Assembly (NCBI GenBank): GCA_028697885.1 | Contig: JAQVER010000001.1 | Span: forward strand, 19,970 to 83,969 | Direction of reading: 5' to 3' | Origin: Desulfocapsaceae bacterium | GTDB lineage: Bacteria; Desulfobacterota; Desulfobulbia; Desulfobulbales; Desulfocapsaceae | DNA length: 64,000 bases | Part shown: positions 8,449-59,644 of the stretch, piece by piece | How the letters are laid out: every line of letters begins with the position of its first letter | Numbering within the stretch: position 1 is the first letter of the stretch | Translations under genes and position numbers: made by a program | The notes under the pieces: generated by a model | The model's database searches: none | What the model was told of the DNA's origin: nothing | Seen by the model: only the letters and a program-made list of their open reading frames with translations

Positions 8449-8524
8449 TATTTTAAACGCTGCTTTCCGGTCTCCATCTTTTTAGTTTTATCTCTTATTA
8501 TTCCACCAAAGGAGCTGCCTTGGT

Positions 8525-10303: not shown

Positions 10304-10476
10304 GAGAGAGTGCGGAGTAATGTTATTATTCGGTGAAGAGAGTGGTCAAAGATTATTGTATTCCATTTTATGAAGAGATATAGTAAAAAAATGTGTTATG
10401 GGTTGTCTTCTCAATGTTTGTTGTATTGAGTATTGGGTTGGTGAAGGGAATAATGAAAAGAGTAGAGGACTAAAGA

Positions 10477-11160
10477 ATGCGACGAATAACTACTGGTATT
10501 GTGGCTGGTCTGCTCCTGCTAAGCGCTCATCATGCGCAGGCCTTTGATGAAAAAGGAGGAAATGCGCTTTGGGGCAAATATGCCATCCAAACATGTCGAT
10601 CCTGCCATAAAGAAAAAGGGTTGAGCAGTCTGGAGCCAGATGAAAAGAGCGCTGCGGAGTGGGAATCGTTTTTTGTCGATCGGTATAAGAAATTGCGGGA
10701 TATGAACCATGATTTCTCAGCAATAGGGATTAATGAACGTCAGTTGGAAAATATTCATCGTTACCTGCTTGAAGATTCAATGAAAAGAGAGGCTGGCAAG
10801 GCTCCTGAGACCACTGCGTTAAAAACCATTGGGGCAAAGCCTAAAAAGGTGCTGGCAGAGGATGACGAAAAAATGGAGGGGGCTGGTCTGTTTAATGCTT
10901 CCGCTGGAGATGCTAGGAAGGGGCGCTATGTTTTTCGAAGGTGTCTGACCTGCCATAAAAAAAATGATGCGCCGATTATCAGTCCTGCTGATCGAACCAA
11001 GGCGGCCTGGGATCGTTATTTTGCCAATGATTTTAAAAAATTGAAAAAAGATATGCCCAAGTTTGATACCTACGGGTTTACTATTGGTCAGATGGAGCAT
11101 TTGCATCAGTTTGTTCTGGAGTACGCACTGGATGCATCAAGACCTAAGACCTGTGAATAA
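10477..11160 (+). CDS. Periplasmic diheme c-type cytochrome (internally duplicated)
   Basis: Signal peptide MRRITTGIVAGLLLLSAHHAQA. The two CxxCH motifs are CRSCH (10594-10608) and CLTCH (10942-10956). The halves align: AAEWESFFVDRYKKLRDM..ERQLENIHRYLLE versus KAAWDRYFANDFKKLKKDM..IGQMEHLHQFVLE. Confidence 0.85.
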   Translation: MRRITTGIVAGLLLLSAHHAQAFDEKGGNALWGKYAIQTCRSCHKEKGLSSLEPDEKSAAEWESFFVDRYKKLRDMNHDFSAIGINERQLENIHRYLLEDSMKREAGKAPETTALKTIGAKPKKVLAEDDEKMEGAGLFNASAGDARKGRYVFRRCLTCHKKNDAPIISPADRTKAAWDRYFANDFKKLKKDMPKFDTYGFTIGQMEHLHQFVLEYALDASRPKTCE

Positions 11161-11250
11161 AGAGGGGATCTCGAAAGCTGTTTTTCTTAAAATAGTTTCT
11201 GTCTCAATTTCAGGAAAATGGTAGTTGACAGTGAATGAGCAACGCAGAAA

Positions 11251-11291
11251 GCGAAAGGCCTTTTTACCGGTTTGGTAAAAAGGCCTTTCGC
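11251..11291. terminator. Bidirectional hairpin terminator between convergent genes
   Basis: A perfect 18-bp stem, GCGAAAGGCCTTTTTACC-GGTTT-GGTAAAAAGGCCTTTCGC, lies between the cytochrome stop (11160) and the barrel-protein stop (11333). Confidence 0.7.
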
Positions 11292-11332
11292 TTTGGTGCT
11301 ATTTCTTTATATGAGCGATGCTCTTGTTTTTG

Positions 11333-13057
11333 TTACCAACGATATGCGAGATTGACATAATAGTTCCACATGGTATCGACCACCGGCATAAAGGTGTCCA
11401 GAGATGTCAGCTCTGAGATCTTAACCGGATCACCCATGGGGCTGCCGCTGCCTGAATATTCATAATCATAATATTGGGCGCCAATTGAGAGTACAAGTTT
11501 ATTGTCAACAAAGGGCTGGTTGTAGAATATTTCATATACACTTCCCCGGGTGGCCAGTTTGCTGCCGGCAATGTTGTCCTCGCCACCAGTGAAACCTAGC
11601 CAGTATTGGGAGCCCCAGTTGTATTCGAAGCCAATGGTGCCTTCAGTCCAAGAGACAGGCGCTTTCACACCTGCCCAGATGGAGTAGCCGGTCCGGTCAA
11701 ACTGTTCGCCGTTGCTGTTGAGCAGTCCGTCTGTGCCAAAAAATTGCATCATGGGGCTCATCGATATTCCGGACGGACGGGTATGGCTGAGGGCCAAGTC
11801 GGCGAAGAAACCTATGTCTTTGTATTCAGATTGACCAAGGAGGGTAATAATGTCAATGTCGCCAATGTTGGCCGTAGGTTCTGTTCGACTGATATAGCCG
11901 CCAGTGTTTGCAGTCATGCTGTAGCTATCATAACGGCCATCTCCATTCATATCCATGCCAGACATGGTGAAGGGCATAACCACAAGTCCGGTAAAGCCGT
12001 CTGTGACATCAAAGGCATGGGCGTACATGTTGATGACTTTTGTCTTGTCATTTTCGTAAAGATTGGCTATCCAGCCAGCAAACTGCATGTCCTTGACGTC
12101 CGAGGAGGATGAAAAAGAATAGGAGTTTCCTGACCCGGCACCAGACTCAAAGCCATTTCCCCAGCAGATTTTGAAGGCGGATCCTTCTACGCCAGTTGCT
12201 TCCGCCAGGTTGAATCCCAGGGATGCCCCGTCAAATTGCCAGTTGATGCCGTGTGCCATGGGAGAGCCGCCGACGGTACTGGCATTGCTGAATTCTGAAG
12301 GCGCTCCATCAAGGGCCGGGCGGCGACCGATGGAGAAATGATAGGGTATTCCATTGATATCGTCAAAATAAGTAAAAAAAGCACGTTCCAGACGGAGAGC
12401 TGAATCACTGCCTGTGGAGTGTACATTGCCATCCATGGTAACGGCATTGGGGCCGCCATTATACCATTTGACCCCGGAGGAATCGCCATAGACCTTGTTG
12501 GCGGAAAGCCGTCCAACAAAGGAGAGGGAGTCGGCAGGGCGGGCCTTTAAGTCAACGCGAATCCGGGTGCCAAAGATGGTGTTATTATCGATATCTTGAT
12601 CTTCCGGTGGGGGCAGAGGGCCAAGGGCGCCAAGGGCAGCCTTGGTGAAAGGAGTACCATTGGCCATGCTCATGATGCCATTCTGTAACGATTGCGGCAT
12701 GCCCTTGGCATCCATATGCAGGGAATTCAGTCTGGTTTCAAGATCGGCACTCAGGTTCAGTTTGTCCAGGGTGCTATGTTCTTCGTTGCTGGATACCCGT
12801 TTGTCCAAGTCGTCCAGCTCATCCTGCAGCTCCTGCCCATGACCACCTTGTTTGTTTTGTTGTTCCAGTGAAATTTGCAGCGTTTCTTCAGCAGTTGCCA
12901 GACGCTCATTGAGATCCATGACAATTGCTTTCAGCATCTCGATTTCCTGTACTAGTTCCTGGCTGGCTACAGGGCCGCCGGCAACGGCATCTCCCGGTAG
13001 GCCTTGGAACGATAAAAGTAATGTCGCTAAACTTGCAAGTCCGTAACGTTTTATCAT
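11333..13057 (-). CDS. Putative outer-membrane beta-barrel protein with N-terminal coiled coil (DUF3373-like)
   Basis: Signal peptide MIKRYGLASLATLLLSFQGLPGDAVA. About 90 aa of heptad-like sequence follow (QELVQEIEMLKAIVMDLNERLATAEETLQ). The rest is a long Gly/Ser/aromatic-rich region with alternating pattern, ending in YYVNLAYRW (terminal aromatic residue). Size and layout fit my memory of DUF3373. Confidence 0.7.
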   Translation of the reverse strand: MIKRYGLASLATLLLSFQGLPGDAVAGGPVASQELVQEIEMLKAIVMDLNERLATAEETLQISLEQQNKQGGHGQELQDELDDLDKRVSSNEEHSTLDKLNLSADLETRLNSLHMDAKGMPQSLQNGIMSMANGTPFTKAALGALGPLPPPEDQDIDNNTIFGTRIRVDLKARPADSLSFVGRLSANKVYGDSSGVKWYNGGPNAVTMDGNVHSTGSDSALRLERAFFTYFDDINGIPYHFSIGRRPALDGAPSEFSNASTVGGSPMAHGINWQFDGASLGFNLAEATGVEGSAFKICWGNGFESGAGSGNSYSFSSSSDVKDMQFAGWIANLYENDKTKVINMYAHAFDVTDGFTGLVVMPFTMSGMDMNGDGRYDSYSMTANTGGYISRTEPTANIGDIDIITLLGQSEYKDIGFFADLALSHTRPSGISMSPMMQFFGTDGLLNSNGEQFDRTGYSIWAGVKAPVSWTEGTIGFEYNWGSQYWLGFTGGEDNIAGSKLATRGSVYEIFYNQPFVDNKLVLSIGAQYYDYEYSGSGSPMGDPVKISELTSLDTFMPVVDTMWNYYVNLAYRW

Positions 13058-27736: not shown

Positions 27737-28099
27737 ATGTTTATCAATCAATCTGTCCAAGCATATAGCCGTCCCATGATGCCATCGTCAATGCACCAGC
27801 AATTGCGGAAAAAAGCTCTTAGTGTGCTCGGTCCGAAAATATTGTGGATGGCTGTAGGGAAGGTGTTGCTCTTTTTCTGTCCGTTGTTTCTTCTGGCGAA
27901 CTTCTGGCTGACAGCCTCTGCGAGTCGCTTGGCTTTAGTTGTTGAGGATGCAGAAAAAAGTCGTTATGTCCTTATGGATGAACATATCAAGCTCAGGGCT
28001 GAGCGGGCCCGTCTTTATTCCCCTGAGTATCTCAATAAGATAGCGGCAAGTCAGCTCGCACTCTATGTTCCTGGAAAAGAACAGATTACCCGTTTTTAG
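27737..28099 (+). CDS. ftsL: FtsL-like cell division protein
   Basis: It is 120 aa with a single TM (ILWMAVGKVLLFFCPLFLLANFWL) followed by a coiled-coil-like segment. It sits between rsmH and the PBP gene. Confidence 0.7.
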   Translation: MFINQSVQAYSRPMMPSSMHQQLRKKALSVLGPKILWMAVGKVLLFFCPLFLLANFWLTASASRLALVVEDAEKSRYVLMDEHIKLRAERARLYSPEYLNKIAASQLALYVPGKEQITRF

Positions 28100-28240: not shown

Positions 28241-30289
28241 ATGGTCATCCAGTCGCGTCGGAGGGGAAAGAAGAGCGGGCGAAGCGGGTTGGCGGTTTTG
28301 GGAATTGCGCTGATTGTTGTCGCAGGAGTTGTCGCTGGTGCTGCTCTGTATCGGCAGGAGGTCGCTCCTGCGTCGTCTTTGGTGCCCTCGACACTGGACC
28401 ATCCATGGTCAGCGCTTACAGGCTTTGTCAACAAGATGTTTTCCGGGCAGGAGAAGGCGGCAGAAAAGAAAAAAAATGTACGTGGGACTATTTATGACCG
28501 TAGCTTTAAGGAGTTAGCCTTATCGCTTGATCGGGTTTCTCTCTATGTGAGACCTAGGGAGTTGGAAGATGTGCATGGCAGTGCCAGGCAGCTTGCCACA
28601 GTTCTGGGTCTGGATGAACAAGAGTTGCTGACCCGTCTGGATAAGGATGCTCAGCGGATCTGGTTGGCAAAAGATATTAGTCTGGAAGAAGAAAAGGCAG
28701 TGGAGGATCTTCATCTTTCGGGTGTTTTTCTGCACCGGGAGCAGGTTCGCTATTATCCGTATAAGAGTATTGCTGCCCATGTGATTGGTTTTGCCGATCG
28801 AAATATGGGATTGGCCGGGGTGGAGCGTTATTATAATCGTCTCCTGGATCAAGCCAGTATCAGTCGTGATGATTTTCCCCATATCGATTTGGCAGGCCAT
28901 TATAAGACGGGTATCAGTGGTCAGCATCTTGTCTTGACCATTGATCTGAAAATACAGGATATTCTTGAAAAATACGTGACAGCGCTAGGTGCGGTGCATG
29001 AGGATGCGGGAATTGTAGCTCTTCTCATGGAGACAGAGACGGGTGCCATTGTTGCCAATGCAAATTTCCCGTCCTTCGACCCGAATTTATTTTATCAATA
29101 TAAAAAACAGAATTTTGCAAATATCTTGTTGGAGCCTGTGGCTATTCCTGGTGCAATCAGGAGCTTGTTTCATGACTCGGCTTTACTTCAGGCCGATGTG
29201 GGGCAGGGGAAGCAGATCTACCCCTGGAGTATCACGGCAGGATCTGTTGACAGCGGTAGTGAACTTCGTTTGTGGCAGCGGTTGGGTTTGAGTGCGGTGC
29301 CGGATCTGGATTTTTCGATGCAGGAGGTTCATCCTGATGTTGGCGGGACTGAAAGAAAATCTTCCGCTCCGGAAAGTGAAATGGGAACCGTGCCGTCCAC
29401 AGCAACGCCCATGCAGATACTTGTCGGGCTGAACTCTCTATTAAATGGTGGCCATCGGGTCTTGCCGCATGTGCTTGATCGCATTATGGAGCGGAACGGA
29501 ACTCATGAGTATTTTTTTAGATCTTTCGCAACAGGTGACGGACAGGGAGGTTCTGAGGCCCAAGGAACAAGGGATGACGGGATAGGTGAAGAACGTGGGC
29601 AGGTGTCGCAACGGGCATTGGCTGAAACATTGAGTTTGTTAAAGGCCCAAGGACAGAAAGGGGTGCTCGATTCAGTTTATATTGATGTCCCGGATCTCTC
29701 TTTGCAGCCGGTTGGTAAAAATGGCGAATATATCAGAACCAGAATGATGTTTGCCGTGCTGCCTGCAGACAAACCGGAACTGATTCTTATGGTGATGGTG
29801 CGTCAGCCATACCTGGAACCGTCCATTGCCTCAGCTAAAGATGTATTTGATCTTGTCGGGCCGGTTGGGAAAATCTTGCCGTCGATGGTGGCACTGCAGC
29901 AGGTTCATAAAAATCTTTCTGATATGATGGCTAAGTCTGAAAGGAAAGAGATTAATTATCAGCAGGAGCAAGAGAAAAAAATTCCGCTTGGGCTGGAAAC
30001 CATGCTTGAGCAGCACCATCCACTCATGCCGGACCTTTCCGGTCTGAGTTTGAGGCGGGCCTTGCATTTGTTGCAGGACAAGAATGTCAAGGTACGGATT
30101 CAGGGGACAGGGCGTGTTGTGGCTCAGAACCCGGCTGCTGGTATATCGCTTGGCGGGGTGAAAGAGTGTCTGCTTACCTTGCAGAAAGATGAACAAATAG
30201 GCAAGCACGCAGCTGGTAAAGATCAACCCGTGAGTGATGGCAATATAAAAAACAAAATCGAACGAATAAAGGGTGCGTTGAGGAAATAA
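28241..30289 (+). CDS. ftsI: Class B PBP (positional FtsI/PBP3) with degenerate transpeptidase motifs and a C-terminal PASTA domain
   Basis: A TM anchor and a PBP dimerisation domain (RGTIYDRS..., YYPYKSIAAHVIGF, GLAGVERYYN) are present, followed by ANANFPSFDPN. Where EPGSTxK is expected the sequence reads EPVAIPGAIRS (29132-29164). SxN reads SVD. KTG reads KNG (29717-25). The PASTA domain is MPDLSGLSLRRALHLLQDKNVKVRIQGTGRVVAQNPAAG. Confidence 0.8.
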   Translation: MVIQSRRRGKKSGRSGLAVLGIALIVVAGVVAGAALYRQEVAPASSLVPSTLDHPWSALTGFVNKMFSGQEKAAEKKKNVRGTIYDRSFKELALSLDRVSLYVRPRELEDVHGSARQLATVLGLDEQELLTRLDKDAQRIWLAKDISLEEEKAVEDLHLSGVFLHREQVRYYPYKSIAAHVIGFADRNMGLAGVERYYNRLLDQASISRDDFPHIDLAGHYKTGISGQHLVLTIDLKIQDILEKYVTALGAVHEDAGIVALLMETETGAIVANANFPSFDPNLFYQYKKQNFANILLEPVAIPGAIRSLFHDSALLQADVGQGKQIYPWSITAGSVDSGSELRLWQRLGLSAVPDLDFSMQEVHPDVGGTERKSSAPESEMGTVPSTATPMQILVGLNSLLNGGHRVLPHVLDRIMERNGTHEYFFRSFATGDGQGGSEAQGTRDDGIGEERGQVSQRALAETLSLLKAQGQKGVLDSVYIDVPDLSLQPVGKNGEYIRTRMMFAVLPADKPELILMVMVRQPYLEPSIASAKDVFDLVGPVGKILPSMVALQQVHKNLSDMMAKSERKEINYQQEQEKKIPLGLETMLEQHHPLMPDLSGLSLRRALHLLQDKNVKVRIQGTGRVVAQNPAAGISLGGVKECLLTLQKDEQIGKHAAGKDQPVSDGNIKNKIERIKGALRK

Positions 30290-30388: not shown

Positions 30389-33300
30389 ATGGATAGTGTA
30401 AGAGCTGAGGAGCAGTTTGTTGAAGGGTGCAGTTGCAAGGGATATTTGCTTGAGACGCTTCTGGCTTCTGTCACTTATTCACTTTTGGGTAAAAAACTGC
30501 CAGCAGGCATAGTCGTCTCTGGTGTGACCGTTGATTCCCGGAGAATAGAGGCAGGATCGCTTTTTGTGGCCCTTGCCGGAAGCAGGACGGATGGGCATGC
30601 CTATCTCGAGCAGGTGATGGCCAGTAGGGCTACGGTATTGGTGGTTGAAGAAGGCCGGGTGAGGCCAGAACAGTTTGCCGATTGTCGTCAGTGTGTGATT
30701 GTAGTTGCGGACAGCCATCTGGCCTATGCGCAGATTGCAGCCAATCTGTATGGCCAGCCGGCACAGGGATTGACTCTGGTCGGAGTCACCGGCACCAATG
30801 GCAAGACCACGGTCAGTTATCTCCTTGAGAGTGTACTGAGACAGCTGGGTCTGGCGGTTGGGGTTATCGGCACGATTAACTATCGCTATCGTGATGCCAG
30901 GGGACAGGATGTTGAGATTCCTGCCCCTTTCACGACACCTGAACCACTCTTGCTTCAGTCTCTCCTGCGGCAAATGGCTGATGCCGGTGTAACCCATGTG
31001 ATCATGGAGGTTTCCTCTCACGCCCTGGTCCAGCGCCGTCTTGGCGATCTGCAATTTGATGTGGTTGCCTTTACCAATCTCTCGCGTGATCATCTGGACT
31101 ATCATCAGGACATGGATGATTATTTTGCCGCCAAGGCCCTCCTTTTTCGTGACCATCTGCAAAAGGGTGGTAAGGCTGTTATTACCCGGACAGCAGCTCA
31201 TGATCCTGAAGAAGAAAAAAGGACGCAACAATTGCTTGGCTTATGTGAGGCTCAGGGTGCTCAGGTGTGGCAGTGTGGCGGGAACGGTGATATTTATCCT
31301 TTGAGTGTCCAGTCAGGTTTGGATTCCACCACCATAACCCTGCATACTTCCGAAGATGAAATCCAGCTTACGACTTCTCTGGTGGGTGATTTTAATGTGG
31401 CAAACCTGTTGACTGTGATGGGAATTGGGCTGGCCCTGGGAGTAGAGGTACAAGCTTTGTCTCTGATGCTGGGGCAGGCATCCGGGGCGCCAGGACGCCT
31501 GCAGCGGATAATGGCCGCAGAACAGGAAAGGCCCTTCCGGCCAGCGGTGTTTGTTGATTATGCCCATACCCCGGATGCCCTGCAAAAGGTTTTAGAAACT
31601 CTTTCCCGGCTTCCGCATCGGAGATTGATCTGTGTTTTTGGCTGCGGCGGTGATCGGGACAAGGGAAAACGGGCTATTATGGGTGAGATCGCCGCTCATT
31701 GCAGCGATGTGGTAGTGGTCACCGACGATAATCCCCGCAGTGAATCACCCCAGGAGATAGTGGCTCAGATTGTCTCCGGTGTCCGTTTGACGGATCTGGA
31801 AAAACGGGAACCTTCCTGGCTTATGGCTTCGGTCGGAGATGAACAGGGATTTCTGGTGCTTCATGATCGTACCCAGGCGATATCCCTGGCCATTGGAGCG
31901 GCAACGGTCGATGATATTGTGCTTATTGCCGGAAAAGGACATGAGCGATATCAACTTGGGGCGGAGGGTACGCGTTTCTTTGATGACAGTCTTGAGGCCA
32001 AGAAAGGACTGACCAGCTGGAGACTTGAAAGTCTTTGTCTCGCTGCTCACGGTGAGCTGGTCGGAGAGAGGAGAGGAATAACTGATCTTGGCTCAGTGGT
32101 CACCGACAGCCGGAAAGTGGTAGCGGGTGATATCTTTGTGGCCTTGGCCGGAGAGAGGTTTGACGGTCATGATTTTCTGCAGCAGGTGGCCTCTGCCGGT
32201 GCAGGATGTCTTGTGATTCGCCGGGAAACTCCTTTAGAGGCGCTTCCTGCCATTCCCTGTCTGTTGGTGGATGATACTTTACAGGCCTTGGGCGATCTGG
32301 CCGCATATCGGCGGCAGGTGATGAAGGCGATCAGTGGGCCGTTGGTGGTGGGGATTACCGGTAGTTGTGGCAAGACGACGGTCAAGGAGATGACTGCCGC
32401 AATCTTTGAACAGCATTGGCAGGGGTTGAATCCAGGGACTCAGGCCTCTTTTGATCAGGTGTTGAAGACCAGGGGCAATTTTAATAATCTTATCGGGTTA
32501 CCTCTTTCTCTCTTGCCAATGAATCCTGGCCACAGAGCTGCTGTTCTGGAGATGGGGATGAACCGGCCAGGTGAGATTGACAGGCTTGTCCGCATTGCTG
32601 ACCCTGATATTGCCTGTATTGTCAATGTCCATGCCGCGCATCTCGAGGGGCTGCACTCCATCGAAGGGGTGGCACGAGCTAAGGAAGAGCTCTTTGCCGG
32701 AAGCGGCCAAGACAGTACCCTGGTGATTAATCTGGATGATCCCCATGTGCGGAACTGTGCTGAAAGGTATTCTCAGAAAAAGGTTTTGTATGCAGCAGGT
32801 GAAGAAGGAATGCGTCACAGACCTCAGGTCTGGGCTTCTGACTTAGGGAGTGAGGGAAGCAGTGCCCAGACCTTTGTCCTTCATATTGCATTGGAGACAA
32901 TCTCTGTGACCTTGCATGTTCCTGGTGTTCATAATATCTCCAATGCTGTGGCTGCAGCGGCTATTGCCCATGCTGCAGGTCTCGGTATAGGAGTGATCGG
33001 GGCAGGGCTTACTGTATTCCAGCCAACTGATAAACGAATGCAGATTGTCAAAGGCATGGGAGGTTTGTATATTCTCAATGATACGTATAATGCCAATCCG
33101 GCCTCAATGCGGGCAGGTCTTGCGACCCTTGCTCAGCAAGGTAATGGAAGGCGGGTTGCCATTCTGGGAGATATGCTGGAACTGGGACCGACCAGCGCGG
33201 AGGCCCATCGGGAAGTGGGAGGGTATGCGGCAGGTCAGCTCATTGATTATCTGGCCCTGGTTGGTAGTTTTGCGGCAGAGACAGCCACGGGGGCGAGAAT

Positions 33301-33475
33301 GGCAGGCATGGAAAGTCTGCGGATCAGGGTTTTTCAGGAGAAGAAGGATGTCGTGTCCTGGATTGAAGAGCTTCTGAGCGCGCGTCAGTTACAGGCTGGT
33401 GACTGGCTATTGGTCAAAGGTTCAAGGGGGATGCGCCTTGAAGAGGTGGTAGAACAGTTGCAGGAGAGTTTGTAG
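30389..33475 (+). CDS. murE-murF: Fused UDP-MurNAc-tripeptide synthetase MurE / UDP-MurNAc-pentapeptide synthetase MurF (1028 aa)
   Basis: The MurE half has GVTGTNGKTTVSYLL and VTDDNPRSE. The junction is near 32010 (..EAKKGLTSWRLESLCLAAHGELVG..). The MurF half has VTDSRKVVAGDIFVAL, GITGSCGKTTVKEM and NDTYNANPASM. There is no stop between the halves. Confidence 0.9.
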   Translation: MDSVRAEEQFVEGCSCKGYLLETLLASVTYSLLGKKLPAGIVVSGVTVDSRRIEAGSLFVALAGSRTDGHAYLEQVMASRATVLVVEEGRVRPEQFADCRQCVIVVADSHLAYAQIAANLYGQPAQGLTLVGVTGTNGKTTVSYLLESVLRQLGLAVGVIGTINYRYRDARGQDVEIPAPFTTPEPLLLQSLLRQMADAGVTHVIMEVSSHALVQRRLGDLQFDVVAFTNLSRDHLDYHQDMDDYFAAKALLFRDHLQKGGKAVITRTAAHDPEEEKRTQQLLGLCEAQGAQVWQCGGNGDIYPLSVQSGLDSTTITLHTSEDEIQLTTSLVGDFNVANLLTVMGIGLALGVEVQALSLMLGQASGAPGRLQRIMAAEQERPFRPAVFVDYAHTPDALQKVLETLSRLPHRRLICVFGCGGDRDKGKRAIMGEIAAHCSDVVVVTDDNPRSESPQEIVAQIVSGVRLTDLEKREPSWLMASVGDEQGFLVLHDRTQAISLAIGAATVDDIVLIAGKGHERYQLGAEGTRFFDDSLEAKKGLTSWRLESLCLAAHGELVGERRGITDLGSVVTDSRKVVAGDIFVALAGERFDGHDFLQQVASAGAGCLVIRRETPLEALPAIPCLLVDDTLQALGDLAAYRRQVMKAISGPLVVGITGSCGKTTVKEMTAAIFEQHWQGLNPGTQASFDQVLKTRGNFNNLIGLPLSLLPMNPGHRAAVLEMGMNRPGEIDRLVRIADPDIACIVNVHAAHLEGLHSIEGVARAKEELFAGSGQDSTLVINLDDPHVRNCAERYSQKKVLYAAGEEGMRHRPQVWASDLGSEGSSAQTFVLHIALETISVTLHVPGVHNISNAVAAAAIAHAAGLGIGVIGAGLTVFQPTDKRMQIVKGMGGLYILNDTYNANPASMRAGLATLAQQGNGRRVAILGDMLELGPTSAEAHREVGGYAAGQLIDYLALVGSFAAETATGARMAGMESLRIRVFQEKKDVVSWIEELLSARQLQAGDWLLVKGSRGMRLEEVVEQLQESL

Positions 33476-33553: not shown

Positions 33554-34633
33554 ATGCTCTACCATCTTCTCTATCCACTGCATACGACTTTCAGCGGTTT
33601 TAATATCTTCCGCTATATCACCGTCCGTTCCATTGGCGGAGCGGTGACGGCCTTTCTGCTGATGATTATCCTGGGACCAATGTTTATCAGGGCTCTGCGG
33701 CGTTTCCAGATTGGACAGGTGGTTCGGGATGACGGGCCGGAAACTCATCTGGCAAAGCAGGGAGTGCCCACTATGGGTGGGGTGCTGATTCTCTCTGCCA
33801 TTACCTGCTCGACGCTGCTGTGGGCCAGGCTGGATAGTTCATTGGTATGGCTGCTGCTCTTTGTGACCTTGTTTTTCGGTATGATCGGGGCAATTGATGA
33901 TCTGAAAAAGGTTCACAAGAAAAACAGCAAAGGGCTGAGTGCCAGAGGAAAACTGATTCTGCAGATTGGTGGCGCTTCCGTGGTTGGCCTTTTTGTGCTG
34001 CTGCATCCAGGATTTGACGGGCAGTTGAGTGTGCCTTTTTTTAAAAATATTCATCCCAACTTGGGCTGGTTTTATGTCGTCTTTGCGGTAGTGGTCATTG
34101 TCGGAGCTTCAAATGCGGTAAATCTTACCGACGGTCTTGATGGTCTTGCCACCGGTCCAACGGTTATCTCCGGATCGGTCTATCTGATCTTTTCTTATCT
34201 GGCCGGACATACCGTGCTGGCGGAGTATCTGCAAATTCCCTTTGTACCGGGTGCAGGCGAACTGGCGATTTTCTGTGGGGCGATGGTCGGGGCTTCACTC
34301 GGGTTTCTGTGGTTTAATGCCTATCCGGCCCAAATCTTCATGGGTGACGTTGGATCACTGGCCCTGGGAGGTGCCTTGGGTTCGGTGGCTATCATTATCA
34401 AACAAGAGATCCTGTTGGCCATTGTCGGAGGGATCTTTGTTATGGAGGCGCTATCCGTCATCTTGCAGGTGGGCTATTTTAAGATGACCAATGGCAAACG
34501 GATCTTCCTGATGGCACCTTTTCATCATCATTTTGAGAAAAAAGGCTGGCATGAACCAAAGGTGGTGGTCAGGTTCTGGATTGTTTCCGTGATCCTGGGC
34601 CTTATTGCCGTTGCGACTTTGAAGCTGCGTTGA
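33554..34633 (+). CDS. mraY: Phospho-N-acetylmuramoyl-pentapeptide transferase
   Basis: Shows [16 protein letters not shown] and [13 protein letters not shown], with a polytopic membrane profile. Confidence 0.95.
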
Positions 34634-36075
34634 TGACCAGGCAAGTTAACAAAGCAGTCGGGAGTCATGCTCCCTCTTCATCCCGCCCGGAAGCATCCAA
34701 GCCTTGCGTCGCGGTGATGGGGCTGGGAGTCTCAGGCCGGGCCGCGGTACGTTATCTGGCATCGCAGGGGCTGAAGGTGTTGGTTTCTGATACCAGGGCC
34801 GCACATTTGTTGCCGGCAGCAGATCTGGCCTTTCTGGCAGAATATGGAGTGGAATACGAATGTGGAGGTCATAGCCTAGCCTTTCTCAGACAGGCTGATA
34901 AAATTCTGGTCAGTCCTGGAATCAGGCAGGAACTGGAGATTCTGCTGCAACTTCGAGCCCTTAACATTCCGGTGCTGGGTGAATTGGCTGTGGCTGCGCC
35001 GCTCATCAACAAACCGGTAATTGCCATCACCGGTACCAATGGTAAGACCACTGTCACTGCCCTGATTGGCGAGTTGCTGCAAGGGGCCGGGAAAAAGGTT
35101 TTTGTCGGTGGCAATATCGGAACATCGCTTTTTGATTATCTCAATAATCCTGAAGATGTTGATGTGCTGGTTCTTGAACTGTCAAGTTTTCAGTTGGAGG
35201 CAGCCGGGGACTTTAAGGCCGATGTGGCGATCCTCCTTAATGTGACCCCGGATCATCTGGACCGCCACGGCAGTATGGAGAGCTATGCTGCGGCCAAGAT
35301 GAAGATCTTTTCCGGTCAGGGACAGAATGACACGGCAATTCTCAGCGGAGATGATCACTCTTGTCGAGAGATGCTATCGGGGCTCGGGGGCGGGCAGCGG
35401 CAACTGCTTTTCGGGCATGGCCAGGATTGTCAGGCGCGGATTGAAGATCATAGGGTTATGCTTTTGTGGCAAGGGCGCGAAGAGCGTTATGATCTTACGG
35501 GCTCCATGCTTGATACTGCCACAGGCGCATTGAACAGTGCTGCTGCCATCCTTGCCGTCCGTAGCTTTGGTTGTGGCCAGGAGGTGATCGCGCAGGGTCT
35601 TGCTGCCTTTCAGGTGGCGGCTCATCGAATGGCCTTAGTGGGGGAGGCTGCCGGGGTCTCTTATTATGATGACTCCAAGGCCACCAATACTGGAGCCGTT
35701 CTCAGCGCCCTGGAAAATTTTAAGGGTAACGTGATCCTTATTGTCGGCGGCCGTGACAAGGGCGATGATTATACCCTGCTGAAGGAGAGTGTTGGTCGGA
35801 AAGTGCGCTGTCTGATTCTGATAGGGGAGGCCGCGGAGCTGATTGGCCAGGCCCTGGCAGGAGTGACGGAGTTGCGAAAGGCCTGCTCAATGGAAGATGC
35901 GGTGCTGCTGGCGGCCTCCATTGCCAGAGCTGGGGATACGGTGCTGCTTTCTCCTGCCTGTGCCAGTTTTGATATGTTTGAGAATTATGGCCATCGGGGC
36001 AGGGTCTTTGCGGAGGCAGTGCAGAGGGTGATTGATCAGTCAGGGCCTGTCGCAGGCCAGGATGGCGGTAGCTGA
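34633..36075 (+). CDS. murD: UDP-N-acetylmuramoylalanine--D-glutamate ligase
   Basis: Shows VAVMGLGVSGRAAVRYL and ITGTNGKTTVTALIGELL. ATG 34633 overlaps the mraY stop (TTGATGA); the track begins at TTG 34630. Confidence 0.92.
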   Translation: MTRQVNKAVGSHAPSSSRPEASKPCVAVMGLGVSGRAAVRYLASQGLKVLVSDTRAAHLLPAADLAFLAEYGVEYECGGHSLAFLRQADKILVSPGIRQELEILLQLRALNIPVLGELAVAAPLINKPVIAITGTNGKTTVTALIGELLQGAGKKVFVGGNIGTSLFDYLNNPEDVDVLVLELSSFQLEAAGDFKADVAILLNVTPDHLDRHGSMESYAAAKMKIFSGQGQNDTAILSGDDHSCREMLSGLGGGQRQLLFGHGQDCQARIEDHRVMLLWQGREERYDLTGSMLDTATGALNSAAAILAVRSFGCGQEVIAQGLAAFQVAAHRMALVGEAAGVSYYDDSKATNTGAVLSALENFKGNVILIVGGRDKGDDYTLLKESVGRKVRCLILIGEAAELIGQALAGVTELRKACSMEDAVLLAASIARAGDTVLLSPACASFDMFENYGHRGRVFAEAVQRVIDQSGPVAGQDGGS

Positions 36076-37280
36076 TGGGGAAGAGGCAGGAACCCATACG
36101 GTTGCTGCTTACCGGTGGTGGGACCGGGGGCCATCTTTTCCCGGCCATTGCCACGGCAGAGGCCATGTGCCGCCGTCTTCCAGGTACCGAGATACTTTTT
36201 GTGGGAACGCGCCGCAAGATGGATAAGAGCAGTCTTGCCCACTATGGTTTCACTACCAGGACCATCCATTGCCAGGGATTAAAAGGAAAGGGGGCGTTGG
36301 CTCTGCTTCAGGCCCTGGTTCTACTGCCGCTCTCCCTGGTGGAGGCCCTCTGGCATATCCTCCGTTTTCACCCGCATCTGGTGGTGGGTGTCGGCGGCTA
36401 TGTGACAGGACCGGTGGTGGCTGCAGCAAGGATACTGGGAGTTCCAACCGTGATTCATGAACAGAATTCTGTGCCGGGGTTAGCCAATAGAAAATTAGGT
36501 GGCCTGGCCACCAGAATCTGTCTTTCACTCCCGGGCAGTGAGGATTTTTTCCCGGCAGGAAAGACGGTGCTGACCGGTAATCCTGTGCGTCGTCAGATCC
36601 TGGAACTGGCCGGGAAATCGCAGGCCAAGAAAGGCCAAGTGCCACAGATGGATGCAGAGCGACTGCAGGCCAAAGATGGACACGTGTCGCTCGCTCCAGG
36701 GATGGAGGAAGAGCGACCACTCAGGAAAATCGGTGATAAAGTAAGGATTCTGATTCTGGGAGGCAGTTTGGGAGCGCATCGGGTCAATGAGCTGATGGTG
36801 GATGTGTTGACCAAATATGGCAAGATCCTGCCACCAGGGATAGAGGTTATTCATCAGACAGGCGCGGCAGATCAGGAGATGGTGCGGTTGGCCTATGAGC
36901 AGGCCGGAGTCAAGGCCACTGTGGCAGCTTTTTTTACCGATATGGCAGAGATTTATGGCAAAAGTGATTTGCTGGTCTCACGGGCTGGTGCCACTACCCT
37001 TGCCGAGTTGGCAGTTCTTGGAAAACCTGCCCTGCTGATTCCTTATCCCTTTGCCGCTGATGACCATCAATACAGGAATGGTCGCTATTATGCTGACAGT
37101 GGTGGGGCTGTGGTTTTAATGGAGCGGGAACTGTCGGGCAGGAAACTGGCAGAGGCCCTGGCTGCTCTTGTCAGCAGTCCTGGACGGCTGCAGGAGATGG
37201 CAGAGGCCATGCACTCTATGGCACGACCTGATGCCGCGGAAAGGATAGTCGATGTTTGTTTGGAAATGATAACTAACTGA
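36075..37280 (+). CDS. murG: UDP-GlcNAc:lipid I N-acetylglucosaminyltransferase MurG (with linker insertion)
   Basis: Shows LLLTGGGTGGHLFPAIATAEA, HEQNSVPGLANR, GGSLGA and RAGATTLAEL. Its start overlaps the murD stop by 1 nt, so no gene lies between murD and murG. Confidence 0.93.
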   Translation: MGKRQEPIRLLLTGGGTGGHLFPAIATAEAMCRRLPGTEILFVGTRRKMDKSSLAHYGFTTRTIHCQGLKGKGALALLQALVLLPLSLVEALWHILRFHPHLVVGVGGYVTGPVVAAARILGVPTVIHEQNSVPGLANRKLGGLATRICLSLPGSEDFFPAGKTVLTGNPVRRQILELAGKSQAKKGQVPQMDAERLQAKDGHVSLAPGMEEERPLRKIGDKVRILILGGSLGAHRVNELMVDVLTKYGKILPPGIEVIHQTGAADQEMVRLAYEQAGVKATVAAFFTDMAEIYGKSDLLVSRAGATTLAELAVLGKPALLIPYPFAADDHQYRNGRYYADSGGAVVLMERELSGRKLAEALAALVSSPGRLQEMAEAMHSMARPDAAERIVDVCLEMITN

Positions 37281-38669: not shown

Positions 38670-39602
38670 ATGGCAATGGGGAGTGAGTTGAAGAAGGAGC
38701 TGGTGTCGCTGGTAAGCAGCCCAGTACTTTGGGATTGTCCTTTGAGCGCTTATACCTCTTTTGCCATAGGTGGTCCTGCTGCAGCCTTGATTACGGTCGA
38801 GGAGCTTGCAGAGCTTCAACGATTGCTTGTGTTTTTCCAGGAGCAGAAGATCTCATGGCGTGTCATTGGTCGGGGAACCAACCTCTTGGTGAGTGATAGC
38901 GGATTTGATGGGGTCGTCCTTGTTTTGGGCAAAGGATTTACTTCTATTAGCCGTAGAGATAGAGTAGAGAATGGCGGAGGTGTTATCCAGGTTGGAGCCG
39001 CATGCAGCCTTACCCGTCTTGTTGACTGGTGCGTGGAGCAGGGCCTTTCAGGAGTCGAATTTGCGGCTGGAATTCCGGGGACGATTGGGGGGGCGGTGAT
39101 CATGAACGCCGGGGCCTGGGGGCGTGAACTGGCTGAGGTTCTTGTTTCCGTCACCTGTGTCAGTGCATCTGGTCAAGTCTGTACTCTGCCACGGGCAGAA
39201 CTCGAATTTGGCTATCGAACCTGGCATGACCATTATCGTACAGAACAGGATCGGGTGGTGGTAGGGGTGGAATTACACTGCGTGGTGGCGGATCAGGAAC
39301 AGATACGAAAGCTCTGTCAGTCGTATCGTGCAAAGCGCCGGATGAAACAACCCAAGGGAGAACCCAATGCCGGATCTTTTTTTAAGAATCCGAAAGGAGA
39401 CGCCGCCGGCCGCCTTATAGAGGCCAGTGGTCTGAAGGGACTCAGGGTCGGCGGCGCTATGGTGTCCCCCGTTCATGCTAATTTTCTGGTGAATAGCGGT
39501 GGGGCTACGGCCGCCGATGTCATGGAGTTGATGGAAAAAGTGCGGGCCAAGGTTCAGGAGGACAGTGGAATTGTGCTTGAACCAGAAGTTCATTTTCTCT
39601 GA
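38670..39602 (+). CDS. murB: UDP-N-acetylenolpyruvoylglucosamine reductase
   Basis: Shows YTSFAIGGPA, IGRGTNLLVSD, AGIPGTIGGAVIMNAGA and GSFFKNP. It starts immediately after the murC stop. Confidence 0.93.
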   Translation: MAMGSELKKELVSLVSSPVLWDCPLSAYTSFAIGGPAAALITVEELAELQRLLVFFQEQKISWRVIGRGTNLLVSDSGFDGVVLVLGKGFTSISRRDRVENGGGVIQVGAACSLTRLVDWCVEQGLSGVEFAAGIPGTIGGAVIMNAGAWGRELAEVLVSVTCVSASGQVCTLPRAELEFGYRTWHDHYRTEQDRVVVGVELHCVVADQEQIRKLCQSYRAKRRMKQPKGEPNAGSFFKNPKGDAAGRLIEASGLKGLRVGGAMVSPVHANFLVNSGGATAADVMELMEKVRAKVQEDSGIVLEPEVHFL

Positions 39603-39619
39603 ATGGTTATTGATGTATC

Positions 39620-40648
39620 GTGAAGGGCTTAAGAAACGTGTTGAATCCTATGAGAAAGATAGGTTCCCTTTTTCGCTTACCTAAGAAGAACAATAGAAAT
39701 GTTCGTGGTGGTATTGCAGGCCAGGGGAAACAACCGGTGTTTACTTCAAGGGCTGCAGTCCAGCATCAGAAACGTGGCGGGATAGTTAGCAGGATACGAT
39801 CGCTGTTTAAGCGATCGGCCAGGCGTAAGGAATTAAAGCGCATGCCTGTTGTGGCACAAAGGAGGACTCCGAGGGGGTTGATACCGGTATGTCTTTTGGC
39901 TTTACTTGTATCGTTAGGTTTTCTACTTTATTCACCGTTGATGAATGCTGTGTCGGGCATGAACATCTTCAAAATACAGGATATTAGCATTAACGGTTGT
40001 CGGAAGACCTCTCCGTCCATGATTCGCGAACTTACCGGCATCAGGTATCAGGCCAGTCTGGTCAGGCTTAATCCGGAACATATTGCAGCTATTCTCAGAT
40101 CGCATCCATGGATAGCGGCGGCAGAGGTTACGCGTGACTGGCCCGATGTTGTTGTGGTATCTATTAAGGAATACATACCTGAAGCCTTGATTACTCAGGA
40201 TGGCCCCGGCGGCAGGCAGTTTTTTTATCTTGATAAGAGCGGGGTTGTTTTTGCGCCGGTTGAGCCGGGACAGGATATGGATCTTCCGGTTATAACCGGC
40301 TTGGAGGCAAAGGATGGCGGGGGTGGTAATGGCAGTCGGTCGGAGAGGATCAGTGAGGCATTGGCCTTGCTCAAACTTGTCAGACAGAATAATCCTAATT
40401 TGCCGCTTCAGAATCTTTCTGAGATTCATGTTGGCCGTGATGCGGGGATGACCATTTATCTCGCTGACTATCCCTTTCCCATTTATTTTGGTGTAGGTGC
40501 TATCAGAACGAAATACAGTCGTTTGAAAAGGGTGTTGGAGGTTTTGTATAAGGAAACAGAGCAGGGGATGACCATTGCAGATGTTGCGTATATCCGTATG
40601 GATTATTTGGAGAATAAGGTGCTGGTGGCACACAGCGGATCGGGTTGA
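39620..40648 (+). CDS. ftsQ: Cell division protein FtsQ (POTRA) with a long basic N-terminal tail
   Basis: The start is GTG 39620, or ATG 39650. A TM (LIPVCLLALLVSLGFLLY) is followed by the POTRA-like IQDISINGCRKTSPSMIREL and ..VTRDWPDVVVVSIKE. It sits upstream of ftsA. Confidence 0.8.
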   Translation: MKGLRNVLNPMRKIGSLFRLPKKNNRNVRGGIAGQGKQPVFTSRAAVQHQKRGGIVSRIRSLFKRSARRKELKRMPVVAQRRTPRGLIPVCLLALLVSLGFLLYSPLMNAVSGMNIFKIQDISINGCRKTSPSMIRELTGIRYQASLVRLNPEHIAAILRSHPWIAAAEVTRDWPDVVVVSIKEYIPEALITQDGPGGRQFFYLDKSGVVFAPVEPGQDMDLPVITGLEAKDGGGGNGSRSERISEALALLKLVRQNNPNLPLQNLSEIHVGRDAGMTIYLADYPFPIYFGVGAIRTKYSRLKRVLEVLYKETEQGMTIADVAYIRMDYLENKVLVAHSGSG

Positions 40649-40654
40649 AAACTG

Positions 40655-41926
40655 ATGAATGAAATAAATGAAATGAATGACATAGAACCAGTGGTCGAAG
40701 AGGAGCAGGCTTCTGAAAAACGGGCGCCAGGTGAGGTCGTGGCGGGGCTCGATATCGGAACCACGAAGATATGCTGCGTCGTCGGGGAGGTCTTCGATGA
40801 TGGGGTGGATATCATCGGTGTCGGTACAGCGCCCTCAGTGGGATTGAAAAAAGGGATTGTGGTCAATATCGAGTCGACTGTAAAGTCCATTCGGCAGGCC
40901 GTGGAGCAGGCGGAAGAGGCAGCCGGATGTGAATTGCATACTGTCTATGTGGGGATTGCCGGAAATCACATTAAAGGGTTCAACAGTCCCGGAATTCTGG
41001 CCATTAACGGCAGGGAAATCAAAGAGGCTGATGTCGAAGATGTGATTGTGGCAGCCAAGACCGTGAAGATCTCAGAAAATCAGCAGATTATCCATGTCCT
41101 GCCTCAAGAGTATATGGTGGATGATCATACTGGAATCCAGAATCCTCTGGGGATGACCGGTGTTCGTCTCGTGACCAATGTACACATTGTGACCGCTGAT
41201 ATGGCTGCCGTGCATAATCTCTATACCTGTTGTCGGAAGGCAGGTCTGGAGGTATTGGATATGGTGTTGGAATCTATTGCCTCAGCCTATGCCGTCCTCA
41301 GTGCCGATGAAATGGAGCTGGGGGTGGCCCTTGTTGATATCGGGGGTGGCACCACGGATCTGGCAGTCTTCTGTGACGGGACTATCAGGCACACCTGTGA
41401 GATCGGGCTTGGCGGACATAATCTGACCAACGATCTGTCGGTGGGATTGCGGACACCACTTCAGGAGGCTGAGCGCTTGAAGGAGGATTACGGCAGTGCC
41501 ATCGCCTCATTGATTAAACCGAATCATGTAGTTGATGTGCCGACCGTAGGTGATCGGGAACCACGCAAGGTGACCCAGAAGGTCCTGGTGGATATTTTAC
41601 AGGCCCGTATAGTGGAGATTCTGGAGATGGTTAACCAGGAACTGATTCACTCCGGGAAAAAAAATAAGATCCACGGCGGGATAGTGATTACTGGCGGAAC
41701 AGCTTTGCTTGCCAATTTGGTGGATCTTGCCGAGCAGATATTTGATCTGCCGGTACGGATTGGTTATCCGGTAAAGATCGGAGGGCGTGTTGAAGAGGTT
41801 CATACCCCGCGCTGCACGACTGCTGTCGGTCTGGTCATGTATGGTCGTAAGCATCGGGTGCAGAGAATAAGCGGTGACTCTTCGATGTTGGGACGTATGA
41901 AGATGTTGATGAAAAAAATCATGTGA
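40655..41926 (+). CDS. ftsA: Cell division protein FtsA
   Basis: Shows VAGLDIGTTKICCVVGE, VDIGGGTTDLAVF and IVITGGTALL. Confidence 0.95.
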   Translation: MNEINEMNDIEPVVEEEQASEKRAPGEVVAGLDIGTTKICCVVGEVFDDGVDIIGVGTAPSVGLKKGIVVNIESTVKSIRQAVEQAEEAAGCELHTVYVGIAGNHIKGFNSPGILAINGREIKEADVEDVIVAAKTVKISENQQIIHVLPQEYMVDDHTGIQNPLGMTGVRLVTNVHIVTADMAAVHNLYTCCRKAGLEVLDMVLESIASAYAVLSADEMELGVALVDIGGGTTDLAVFCDGTIRHTCEIGLGGHNLTNDLSVGLRTPLQEAERLKEDYGSAIASLIKPNHVVDVPTVGDREPRKVTQKVLVDILQARIVEILEMVNQELIHSGKKNKIHGGIVITGGTALLANLVDLAEQIFDLPVRIGYPVKIGGRVEEVHTPRCTTAVGLVMYGRKHRVQRISGDSSMLGRMKMLMKKIM

Positions 41927-42041
41927 TTCTTATGATTTTTGTTTAAGCGAGTGTCAGCAGGTGCTATATTCTATCTGGTGATATTGTTATTAACGGCCCG
42001 CAAGCAGGGGGCTTTGGCAAATCGTACTCAGGGGTGAGATT

Positions 42042-43268
42042 ATGCCGTTTAGAATGGCGGAAACAGAAGGGGTTGCAGTGGTAAAGGTTATTGGTGTCGG
42101 CGGTGGCGGCGGGAATGCCATCAACACCATGGTTAACAATAAGCTGCAGGGTGTTGAGTTTATTGTGGCCAATACGGATAAGCAGGCCCTGAATCAGTCT
42201 CTGGCGGATATCTGTCTGCAGATTGGGCCCAGTATCACCAAAGGGTTGGGTGCAGGCACTGATCCTGATATCGGCGCCCAGGCCGCTCATGAGTCTCTCG
42301 AGGAGCTCAAGAAGGTCCTGAAGGGCAGTGATATGGTCTTTGTCGCAGCCGGGCTTGGCGGTGGTACCGGAACAGGAGCCGCTCCGGTTGTGGCTAAAGT
42401 GAGTAAGGAAATGGGTGCGCTCACTGTGGCAGTGGTAACCAAACCCTTTCATTTTGAAGGTAAGTCCCGGATGAACAATGCCGAGGCAGGTTGGGAAGAA
42501 TTGCGAAAATATGCGGATACGATCATTACCGTTCCCAATGATCGACTTCTCTCACTGATGCAGAAGAATACCAGGCTTTCCGATATGCTCGTCATGGCCG
42601 ATCTTGTTCTGTTGCAGGCGGTTAAGGGGATAACAGACCTGATCAATGTGCCGGGAATGATTAATGCTGATTTTGCAGATCTGCGCACAGTCATGCGGGA
42701 AGTGGGGCCTGCCATCATGGGATCAGGCGCTGCCGTTGGCGAAAACAGGGCAACCGAGGCGGCCAAACGGGCCATTGACAATCAACTCCTTGAAGATGTG
42801 GGGATAGATGGTGCCCGCGGCTTAATTATCAATGTCTCTGCAACACAAGAGAGTTTGACTCTGGCTGAATATATGGAGGTATCGGCTCTCATTCAAAGTA
42901 AGGTGGATGAGGATGCCAAGGTTGTTCTGGGAGTATTGTACGATGAAACCCTTGGTGATGAATTGCGTGTTACAGTGATCGCGACGGGAATAGGCAATGT
43001 GGTCAAGAAAAATGAGCCGATCACTCTGATGGATGAACCACGTAAGACAGTGAAAATTTCAGCCACGCAGGAGACCCCTGTTGCACCGGCTCCAGCCAAT
43101 CCGCGGCCAACCTTTGTCACTCCTCTGCTGCAATCTAATTTTGAAGGTTTTGACAACCTCGGTGTCTCCTCGTCCCGTAAAGAGGTGGGGCGCAGTCAAA
43201 AGGAATCCCGGCCCTGGAATGAGGATTATCTGGAGACGCCAACGTATCTTCGGAAAAAGGCAAATTGA
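42042..43268 (+). CDS. ftsZ: Cell division GTPase FtsZ
   Basis: Shows [29 protein letters not shown] and [13 protein letters not shown]. The C-terminal peptide is [13 protein letters not shown]. Confidence 0.97.
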
Positions 43269-59619: not shown

Positions 59620-59644
59620 TTGAATGGGGTGTCAGGGAGAGAGT

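Follow-up and report, generated by a model that had tools for sequence, protein, structure and literature searches.

How a bacterium completes its division septum when the transpeptidase dedicated to that task has lost its active site is the question raised by a 64,000-nucleotide stretch of DNA from a Desulfocapsaceae bacterium (GenBank assembly GCA_028697885.1, contig JAQVER010000001.1, positions 19,970 to 83,969; hereafter, the window). The window carries a division and cell wall (dcw) gene cluster in which the place of ftsI is taken by a gene, here termed ftsI*, for a homolog of class B penicillin-binding proteins (bPBPs) that has lost all three transpeptidase motifs. The pair formed by FtsW, a glycosyltransferase belonging to the SEDS family (shape, elongation, division and sporulation), and FtsI has been considered the universal, essential synthase of septal peptidoglycan, with Clostridioides difficile put forward as the first organism to depart from this rule (Shrestha et al. 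2023; PMC10693644). In the literature, no paper describing a dead FtsI of Desulfobulbales was found, nor was any relevant precedent for the lack of the catalytic serine. The evidence assembled here suggests that FtsI* is quite probably an FtsI ortholog that became a pseudo-enzyme early in the history of the Desulfobulbales and has since been maintained by selection as a non-catalytic subunit of the divisome.

An FtsI Homolog Without Catalytic Residues

FtsI* is encoded by a single, uninterrupted open reading frame (ORF) of 682 codons at 28,241..30,289 of the window (plus strand, as are all features of the gene given below), beginning at the first possible start codon in the ORF listing. A preliminary description of the locus had placed this frame in the FtsI position of the dcw cluster, with an ordinary anchor and dimerization domain, and both the ORF listing and the order of the surrounding genes bear this out. 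The protein has a single N-terminal transmembrane anchor, as expected of FtsI/PBP3, formed by a hydrophobic helix at residues 15-41 (28,283..28,363; translation SGLAVLGIALIVVAGVVAGAALY...) that is also a helix in the AlphaFold2 model. It is followed by the pedestal, or non-penicillin-binding module (residues 79-255; 28,475..29,005), which matches the PBP_dimer family PF03717 above the Pfam cut-off (residues 81-185, E 7.6e-13) and in which RGxIYDR, RxYP, and GLxGxE are preserved in canonical form. Within it, R81, G82, D86, R87, R170, Y172, P173, G190, G193, and E195 vary little or not at all, and canonical relatives have them too.

The transpeptidase-like module (residues 256-538; 29,006..29,854) retains its fold without the catalytic residues, and the Transpeptidase family PF00905 matches only a fragment of it, residues 259-328, corresponding to positions 2-68 of the 299 in the profile, or its first fifth. 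The NFPSFDPN lead-in noted in the preliminary description was located at residues 275-282, as was a low-complexity insert, GDGQGGSEAQGTRDDGIGEERG (GDGQGG...EERG), at residues 432-453 (29,534..29,599), which is disordered in the model, variable within the clade, and missing from canonical relatives. The C-terminal PASTA domain (residues 596-650; 30,026..30,190) is as well formed as had been supposed: PF03793 matches residues 596-634 at 34.5 bits, above its cut-off of 23.2, and the model places a helix at 604-612 and strands at 617-622, 625-630, and 642-648, an alpha plus three-strand fold with a predicted local distance difference test score (pLDDT) of 90-95.

The register of the catalytic motifs was determined with phmmer against structures in the PDB, with a MAFFT alignment that included 117 homologs, and with hhalign, by which a profile of 63 degenerate sequences was aligned to a profile of 17 canonical ones (probability 100%, 594 aligned columns). 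The three independent alignments gave one common register. In the phmmer alignment, 'FEPGSTVKP' of Escherichia coli PBP3 is paired with 'AIPGA-IRS' of FtsI*, and 'IKTGTAKKVGPDGRYI' with 'VPDLSLQPVGKNGEYI'. The first motif, EPGSTxK, has become IPGAIRS (I302-P-G-A305-I-R-S308; 29,144..29,164), just as the preliminary description had read it, so that the nucleophilic serine is replaced by Ala305 and the lysine by Ser308, or by Arg307 if a one-residue gap is allowed. The second, HSSN, has become PWSIT (29,222..29,236), where the SxN position reads S330-I331-T332, with the serine kept and the asparagine lost; P328-W329-S330 is kept in ~90% of the clade, while the lost asparagine reads T, A, or V. 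The third, KTGT on strand beta3, has become PDLS (29,690..29,701), with P484-D485-L486 at the KTG position. In addition, hhalign revealed a deletion of ~29 residues between the helix bearing the first motif (alpha2) and the SxN loop.

The preliminary description was thus right that all three motifs are gone, and the corrected register strengthens that conclusion, but its readings of the second and third were displaced: 'SVD' (S335-V-D337) lies five residues downstream of the true SxN position, and 'KNG' (K493-N-G495) nine residues downstream of the true KTG position. K493-N-G495 was rejected as a KTG equivalent, since it aligns with 'PDG' of E. coli in the beta3-beta4 turn. A KTGT string at position 491 of a related protein (P0077) was likewise rejected as a third motif, as it also falls in the beta3-beta4 turn and off the KTG position.

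It could be argued that FtsI* is nonetheless a working D,D-transpeptidase, acting through non-canonical residues or through motifs hidden by misalignment, given that its fold is retained and that S330 is conserved at the position of the SxN serine. This is very improbable. The register was identical with each of the three methods, and the nucleophile column is free to vary across the clade (E, K, S, L, A, G, and others). No S.N occurs anywhere in the 682-residue protein, no [KHR][ST]G occurs within the transpeptidase-like region, and no S..K pair within that region is conserved in the clade; hence no intact triad is present elsewhere in the domain. Moreover, the NCBIfam bPBP models all match FtsI* but fall far short of their cut-offs, with 143 bits against 688 for the SpoVD model, 105 against 455 for PBP2, and 79 against 737 for FtsI. 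D,D-transpeptidation requires acylation of the SxxK serine, as is well established in PBP chemistry. Because that serine has been lost, FtsI* is predicted from its sequence to be incapable of forming an acyl-enzyme, and with it of D,D-transpeptidation, the cross-linking of stem peptides, or the binding of beta-lactams.

A Probably Ancient Loss Throughout the Desulfobulbales

Since every catalytic motif is lost and a low-complexity insert is present as well, the gene might be taken for a decaying pseudogene, or for an assembly or sequencing artifact of the contig. Its relatives make either explanation scarcely credible. A scan of GTDB with one genome per species returned 263 relatives, of which the best 80 were fetched, all of them Desulfobulbales by name; together with three further loci, they form a set of 83 related loci. 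Degenerate motifs were found in 83 of 83, including those of the isolates Desulfopila sp. IMCC35008 (a complete genome), Desulfoprunum benzoelyticum DSM 28570, and Desulfobulbus sp. Tol-SR, as well as that of Candidatus Electrothrix aestuarii. Close relatives are therefore not canonical, and the occurrence of the dead motifs in independent assemblies of 83 related genomes excludes an assembly error. Independent genomes, isolates included, share these substitutions and the deletion of 29 residues, and the reading frame is intact here and in the assemblies of relatives (573-715 residues in 82 of the 83 others, and 1662 in the remaining one). Similarity, at 88% identity to metagenome-assembled genomes (MAGs) of Desulfocapsaceae and Desulfocapsa, likewise assigns the window to a Desulfocapsaceae member.

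A protein search extended this picture to ~100 clusters at 25-89% identity, none of which has the motifs and whose names are Desulfocapsaceae, Desulfobulbaceae, and Ca. Electrothrix; according to the NCBI taxonomy, the order of these families is Desulfobulbales, in the phylum Thermodesulfobacteriota. The next matches, from P0103 onward and with the exception of the degenerate P0105, show GSTxK, SSN, and KTGT, spaced as expected. In a neighbor-joining tree, degenerate and canonical sequences were split in 300 of 300 bootstraps, and in 299 of 300 when only the columns of the pedestal were used, the degenerate sequences forming one clade. A single, ancient origin of the dead FtsI would be the simplest reading of these sequence relationships.

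Purifying Selection on a Conserved Fold

The ratio of non-synonymous to synonymous substitution (omega) was estimated by the Nei-Gojobori method against five relatives at 82-88% amino-acid identity. For the whole gene it is 0.17-0.23, with tight bootstrap intervals, a level of purifying selection equal to that of its neighbors murEF (0.18) and murD (0.21). The pedestal is the most constrained part (0.06-0.09), followed by PASTA (0.13-0.23) and the dead transpeptidase-like domain (0.23-0.29, with bootstrap upper bounds of at most 0.42). Residues conserved at 90% or more are likewise most frequent in the pedestal (34 of 177) and PASTA (18 of 56), the highest of all modules, which points to these two as the functional surfaces of the protein.

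An AlphaFold2 model computed from an alignment of 74 sequences has a mean pLDDT of 78 and a predicted template modeling score of 0.68, with core values of 81-97 and confident cores in the pedestal, transpeptidase-like, and PASTA modules. Its top Foldseek matches in the PDB are C. difficile SpoVD, PBP2x, Pseudomonas aeruginosa PBP3, and Staphylococcus aureus PBP1 (E 1e-29 to 1e-25), at target template modeling scores of 0.6-0.68 against bPBP structures, and it has the penicilloyl-serine-transferase fold. These matches indicate that the fold was kept while the chemistry was lost. FtsI* thus bears the marks of a pseudo-enzyme, with its catalytic residues gone, its gene under purifying selection, and its sequence conserved across lineages. 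The view taken in the preliminary description, that this is a maintained pseudo-enzyme and not a decaying pseudogene, is upheld by the omega values, the predicted bPBP fold, and the 83 degenerate relatives.

The main rival to this reading is that the domain has been neofunctionalized, with the old cleft rebuilt as a binding or catalytic site, which would make FtsI* not a passive scaffold but an active receptor or enzyme. Possible candidates include a sensor of peptidoglycan or lipid II, or a hydrolase using S330 together with other residues. The ~90% conservation of P328, W329, and S330 at the old SxN loop is in keeping with such a change, as is the conservation of D357, F358, H410, N402, E423, E462, and Y497 within the dead domain, and an omega of 0.23-0.29 would represent constraint beyond the mere folding of a transpeptidase-like domain. 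However, the sequence shows no identifiable conserved Ser/Lys or Ser/His/Asp arrangement, Electrothrix-type and some other members carry T, G, or another residue in place of S330, the nucleophile position varies freely, and no known family was matched in Pfam or NCBIfam. On balance, neofunctionalization seems unlikely.

Loss of ftsW from the Cluster and Fusion of murE with murF

The dcw cluster of the window has the order mraZ-rsmH-ftsL-like-ftsI*-murEF-mraY-murD-murG-murC-murB-ftsQ-ftsA-ftsZ, and ftsI* accordingly sits where an ftsI is expected, between an ftsL-like ORF and murE. What is missing is ftsW. The last base of murD (34,630-36,075, plus strand) is the first base of murG (36,075-37,280, plus strand), and the gap between the two genes does not exceed 162 nt in 62 of the 63 loci that could be assessed; in L004, the locus of a canonical relative, ftsW lies in a gap of 1174 nt. 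In every locus spanning both genes, ftsW is absent between them. With the FtsW of the canonical relative as a tblastn query, no SEDS homolog was detected in the cluster, elsewhere in the window's 64 kb, or in the 10-kb flanks of any of the 83 related loci. When the same FtsW was compared with a database of 5.8 billion proteins, all of the 120 matches listed were close relatives at 70% identity or above. The window as a whole holds no other gene for a PBP, a SEDS protein, or an L,D-transpeptidase.

These observations can be set beside those of Geerlings et al. 2021 (PMC7873302), who reported that ftsW, zipA, and ftsN are absent genome-wide in two Electrothrix and two Desulfobulbus genomes, while mre, pbpA (PBP2), and rodA are present and lie in a single cluster; genome-wide absence of ftsW is therefore documented by one paper and four genomes. 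Those authors nonetheless took the septum to be synthesized "by FtsI activity".

The second gene to depart from the canonical arrangement is murEF, at 30,389..33,475 (plus strand), which encodes a MurE-MurF fusion of 1028 residues and co-occurs with the dead FtsI. A fusion of this kind in Desulfobulbus was mentioned by Laddomada et al. 2019 (PMC6420597). Every one of the 78 assessable loci, counting the window, has the fusion; the two genes are separate in canonical L004 and in a deep-branching degenerate lineage represented by protein P0102 of locus L085. The combination in that lineage of a degenerate FtsI with unfused murE and murF suggests that inactivation of FtsI preceded the fusion. Inactivation of FtsI goes together with the loss of ftsW and, one deep-branching lineage excepted, with fusion of murE with murF. 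Together, a dead FtsI and a missing ftsW imply that the division wall is built in a non-standard way.

Several features of individual loci may be recorded here. L085 (GCA_039714695.1, a Thermodesulfobacteriota MAG) encodes its very divergent degenerate FtsI at 1023-2915, with a PASTA domain typical of the clade, and its contig, on which murE and murF are separate, ends inside murD; as a possible intermediate, it could help to place the inactivation of FtsI, the loss of ftsW, and the fusion of murE with murF in order. In a Desulfocapsaceae MAG (L073, match at 10001-11695), the FtsI* frame and the MurEF frame are both ORFs of ~1660 residues, which could represent either further fusions or a missed stop codon. 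In Ca. Electrothrix aestuarii (L003; CP159373.1, 15084-21953), the dcw cluster is interrupted after mraY by inserted genes, among them an ORF with reverse-transcriptase and trypsin domains; the FtsI* of this locus is also without the P-W-S motif.

A Probable Non-Catalytic Subunit of the Divisome

The divisome genes around ftsI* are otherwise ordinary, with ftsQ, ftsA, and ftsZ at 39,620..43,268 (plus strand). The ORF at the position of ftsL (27,737..28,099, plus strand) encodes a bitopic protein of 120 residues whose sole Pfam match is to DivIC, at an E-value of 0.11, with no match to FtsL. It is divergent yet conserved, with 93% identity to its counterpart in the related locus L001 and an omega of 0.22, and it may be a divergent FtsL; ftsL has been called "absent" in many Desulfobulbaceae in the literature. 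The gap between this ORF and ftsI* is 141 nt, and ftsL and ftsI overlap in canonical L004. The position of ftsI* beside a conserved FtsL-like ORF, in a cluster with ordinary ftsQ, ftsA, and ftsZ, argues that FtsI* remains a divisome subunit.

Under this reading, FtsQ, the FtsL-like protein, and FtsB would still bring in FtsI* by way of its anchor and pedestal, and its pedestal, transpeptidase-like shell, and PASTA domain would serve as a platform or regulator coupling the Z-ring to other synthases. That septal cross-linking must come from another enzyme, as the preliminary description proposed, follows from PBP chemistry and is reinforced by the missing ftsW of the cluster. Polymerization and cross-linking at the septum might then fall to RodA-PBP2, the only SEDS-bPBP pair reported, and/or to class A PBPs. 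A broader possibility can be offered only tentatively, its chances appearing slightly unfavorable: all of the Desulfobulbales, cable bacteria included, may lack a dedicated septal SEDS-bPBP pair, with a single RodA-PBP2 and/or class A PBPs building both side wall and septum, and with the dead FtsI* repurposed as an adaptor whose conserved pedestal and PASTA domain would pass these synthases on to the divisome.

Some points weigh against this interpretation. The enzyme that replaces FtsW-FtsI is one that we purely infer. The search for ftsW covered the window and the flanks of relatives, and Bacilli are known to keep ftsW outside the dcw cluster (PMC10693644). Finally, selection on the transpeptidase-like shell, together with conserved P328-W329-S330 and D357-F358, could also fit a new ligand-binding or catalytic function. 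Even so, a non-catalytic divisome subunit maintained by selection is the reading that we consider well favored.

If it is correct, FtsI* is a natural separation-of-function allele, and could reveal roles of bPBPs that are independent of catalysis and have been kept over hundreds of millions of years; candidates include divisome assembly, allosteric signaling, and PASTA-mediated sensing of the wall. The assumption in the cable-bacteria literature that the septum is made by the activity of FtsI would be corrected, and PBP3-specific beta-lactams are predicted to be without a target in these organisms. Cultured Desulfobulbus, Desulfotalea, Desulfopila, and Desulfoprunum allow direct testing, and both a non-catalytic role for a division bPBP and FtsW-independent septation in a Gram-negative bacterium thereby become directly testable.

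Other Features of the Window

No ddl gene lies between murB (38,670-39,602) and ftsQ (39,620-40,648). Farther downstream, a 676-residue ORF at 57,589-59,619 combines chorismate-binding and aminotransferase class IV domains and looks like a PabB-PabC (aminodeoxychorismate synthase/lyase) fusion. It is followed at 59,624-61,822 by a methyl-accepting chemotaxis protein of 732 residues, in which a HAMP domain is accompanied by a CZB zinc-binding domain at the N-terminus and a hemerythrin domain at the C-terminus. Upstream, at 5,083-10,303, a protein of 1121 residues with HEAT repeats and a cyclic-nucleotide-binding domain precedes one of 592 residues, in which an ATPase domain of the DnaB_C/AAA_25 type is the sole recognizable part. 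Every 2-kb bin from 1 to 64,000 has a positive GC skew and the genes are mostly on the plus strand, which is consistent with the leading strand of one replichore. No tRNA gene or match to an Rfam family was found in the 64-kb window.

Comparison with Known Systems

The FtsI/PBP3 proteins of E. coli and P. aeruginosa are among the best sequence and structure matches to FtsI*, and share with it a locus between ftsL and murE, a transmembrane anchor, a pedestal with RGxIYDR, RxYP, and GLxGxE, and the penicilloyl-serine-transferase fold. FtsI* differs from them in lacking SxxK, SxN, and KTG, in its deletion of ~29 residues near the site, in its additional C-terminal PASTA domain, and in having no ftsW partner in the cluster. 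A peptidoglycan enzyme fold without catalytic residues, kept as a regulator or adaptor of the divisome, is also found in the dLytM factors EnvC and NlpD. The concept is common to both cases, although fold and partners are unrelated, and the likeness is by analogy only.

Parallels are also offered by bPBPs that contribute to division without transpeptidase activity of their own, such as Bacillus subtilis PBP2B(S309A) with PBP3 as its backup, C. difficile SpoVD/PBP3, and S. aureus PBP1. Catalytically inactive bPBPs of the divisome can still sustain division where the activity comes from a different PBP (Sassine 2017 and Shrestha 2025, as cited in PMC12516126). S. aureus PBP1 and PBP2x, both among the top structural matches, carry PASTA domains as FtsI* does, and those of PBP1 are essential (PMC12516126; PMC9426605). 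However, these cases are laboratory point mutants of otherwise active enzymes whose SEDS partner is present, whereas the inactivation of FtsI* is natural, affects all of the motifs, extends across the order, is ancient, and coincides with the loss of ftsW. A global survey of bPBP and SEDS proteins published in 2025 (PMC12516126) lists FtsI as lacking in Thermotogota, Deinococcota, Chlamydiota, and some Flavobacteria and describes many "pedestal-only" proteins; Desulfobulbales are not named in its text.

A further counterpart is C. difficile, a walled, FtsZ-using bacterium in which a septal FtsW-FtsI synthase is unavailable and another synthase is needed, as would be the case here; there, division without FtsW-FtsI relies on a class A PBP (PMC10693644). 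The Desulfobulbales would provide a second, independent exception to the universality of FtsW-FtsI after that of 2023, one spanning a whole Gram-negative order and differing in kind. In C. difficile, the SEDS-bPBP pair of the dcw cluster is intact, catalytic, and specialized for sporulation, whereas this lineage, Gram-negative and non-sporulating, has lost the SEDS gene and retains the bPBP as a dead enzyme.

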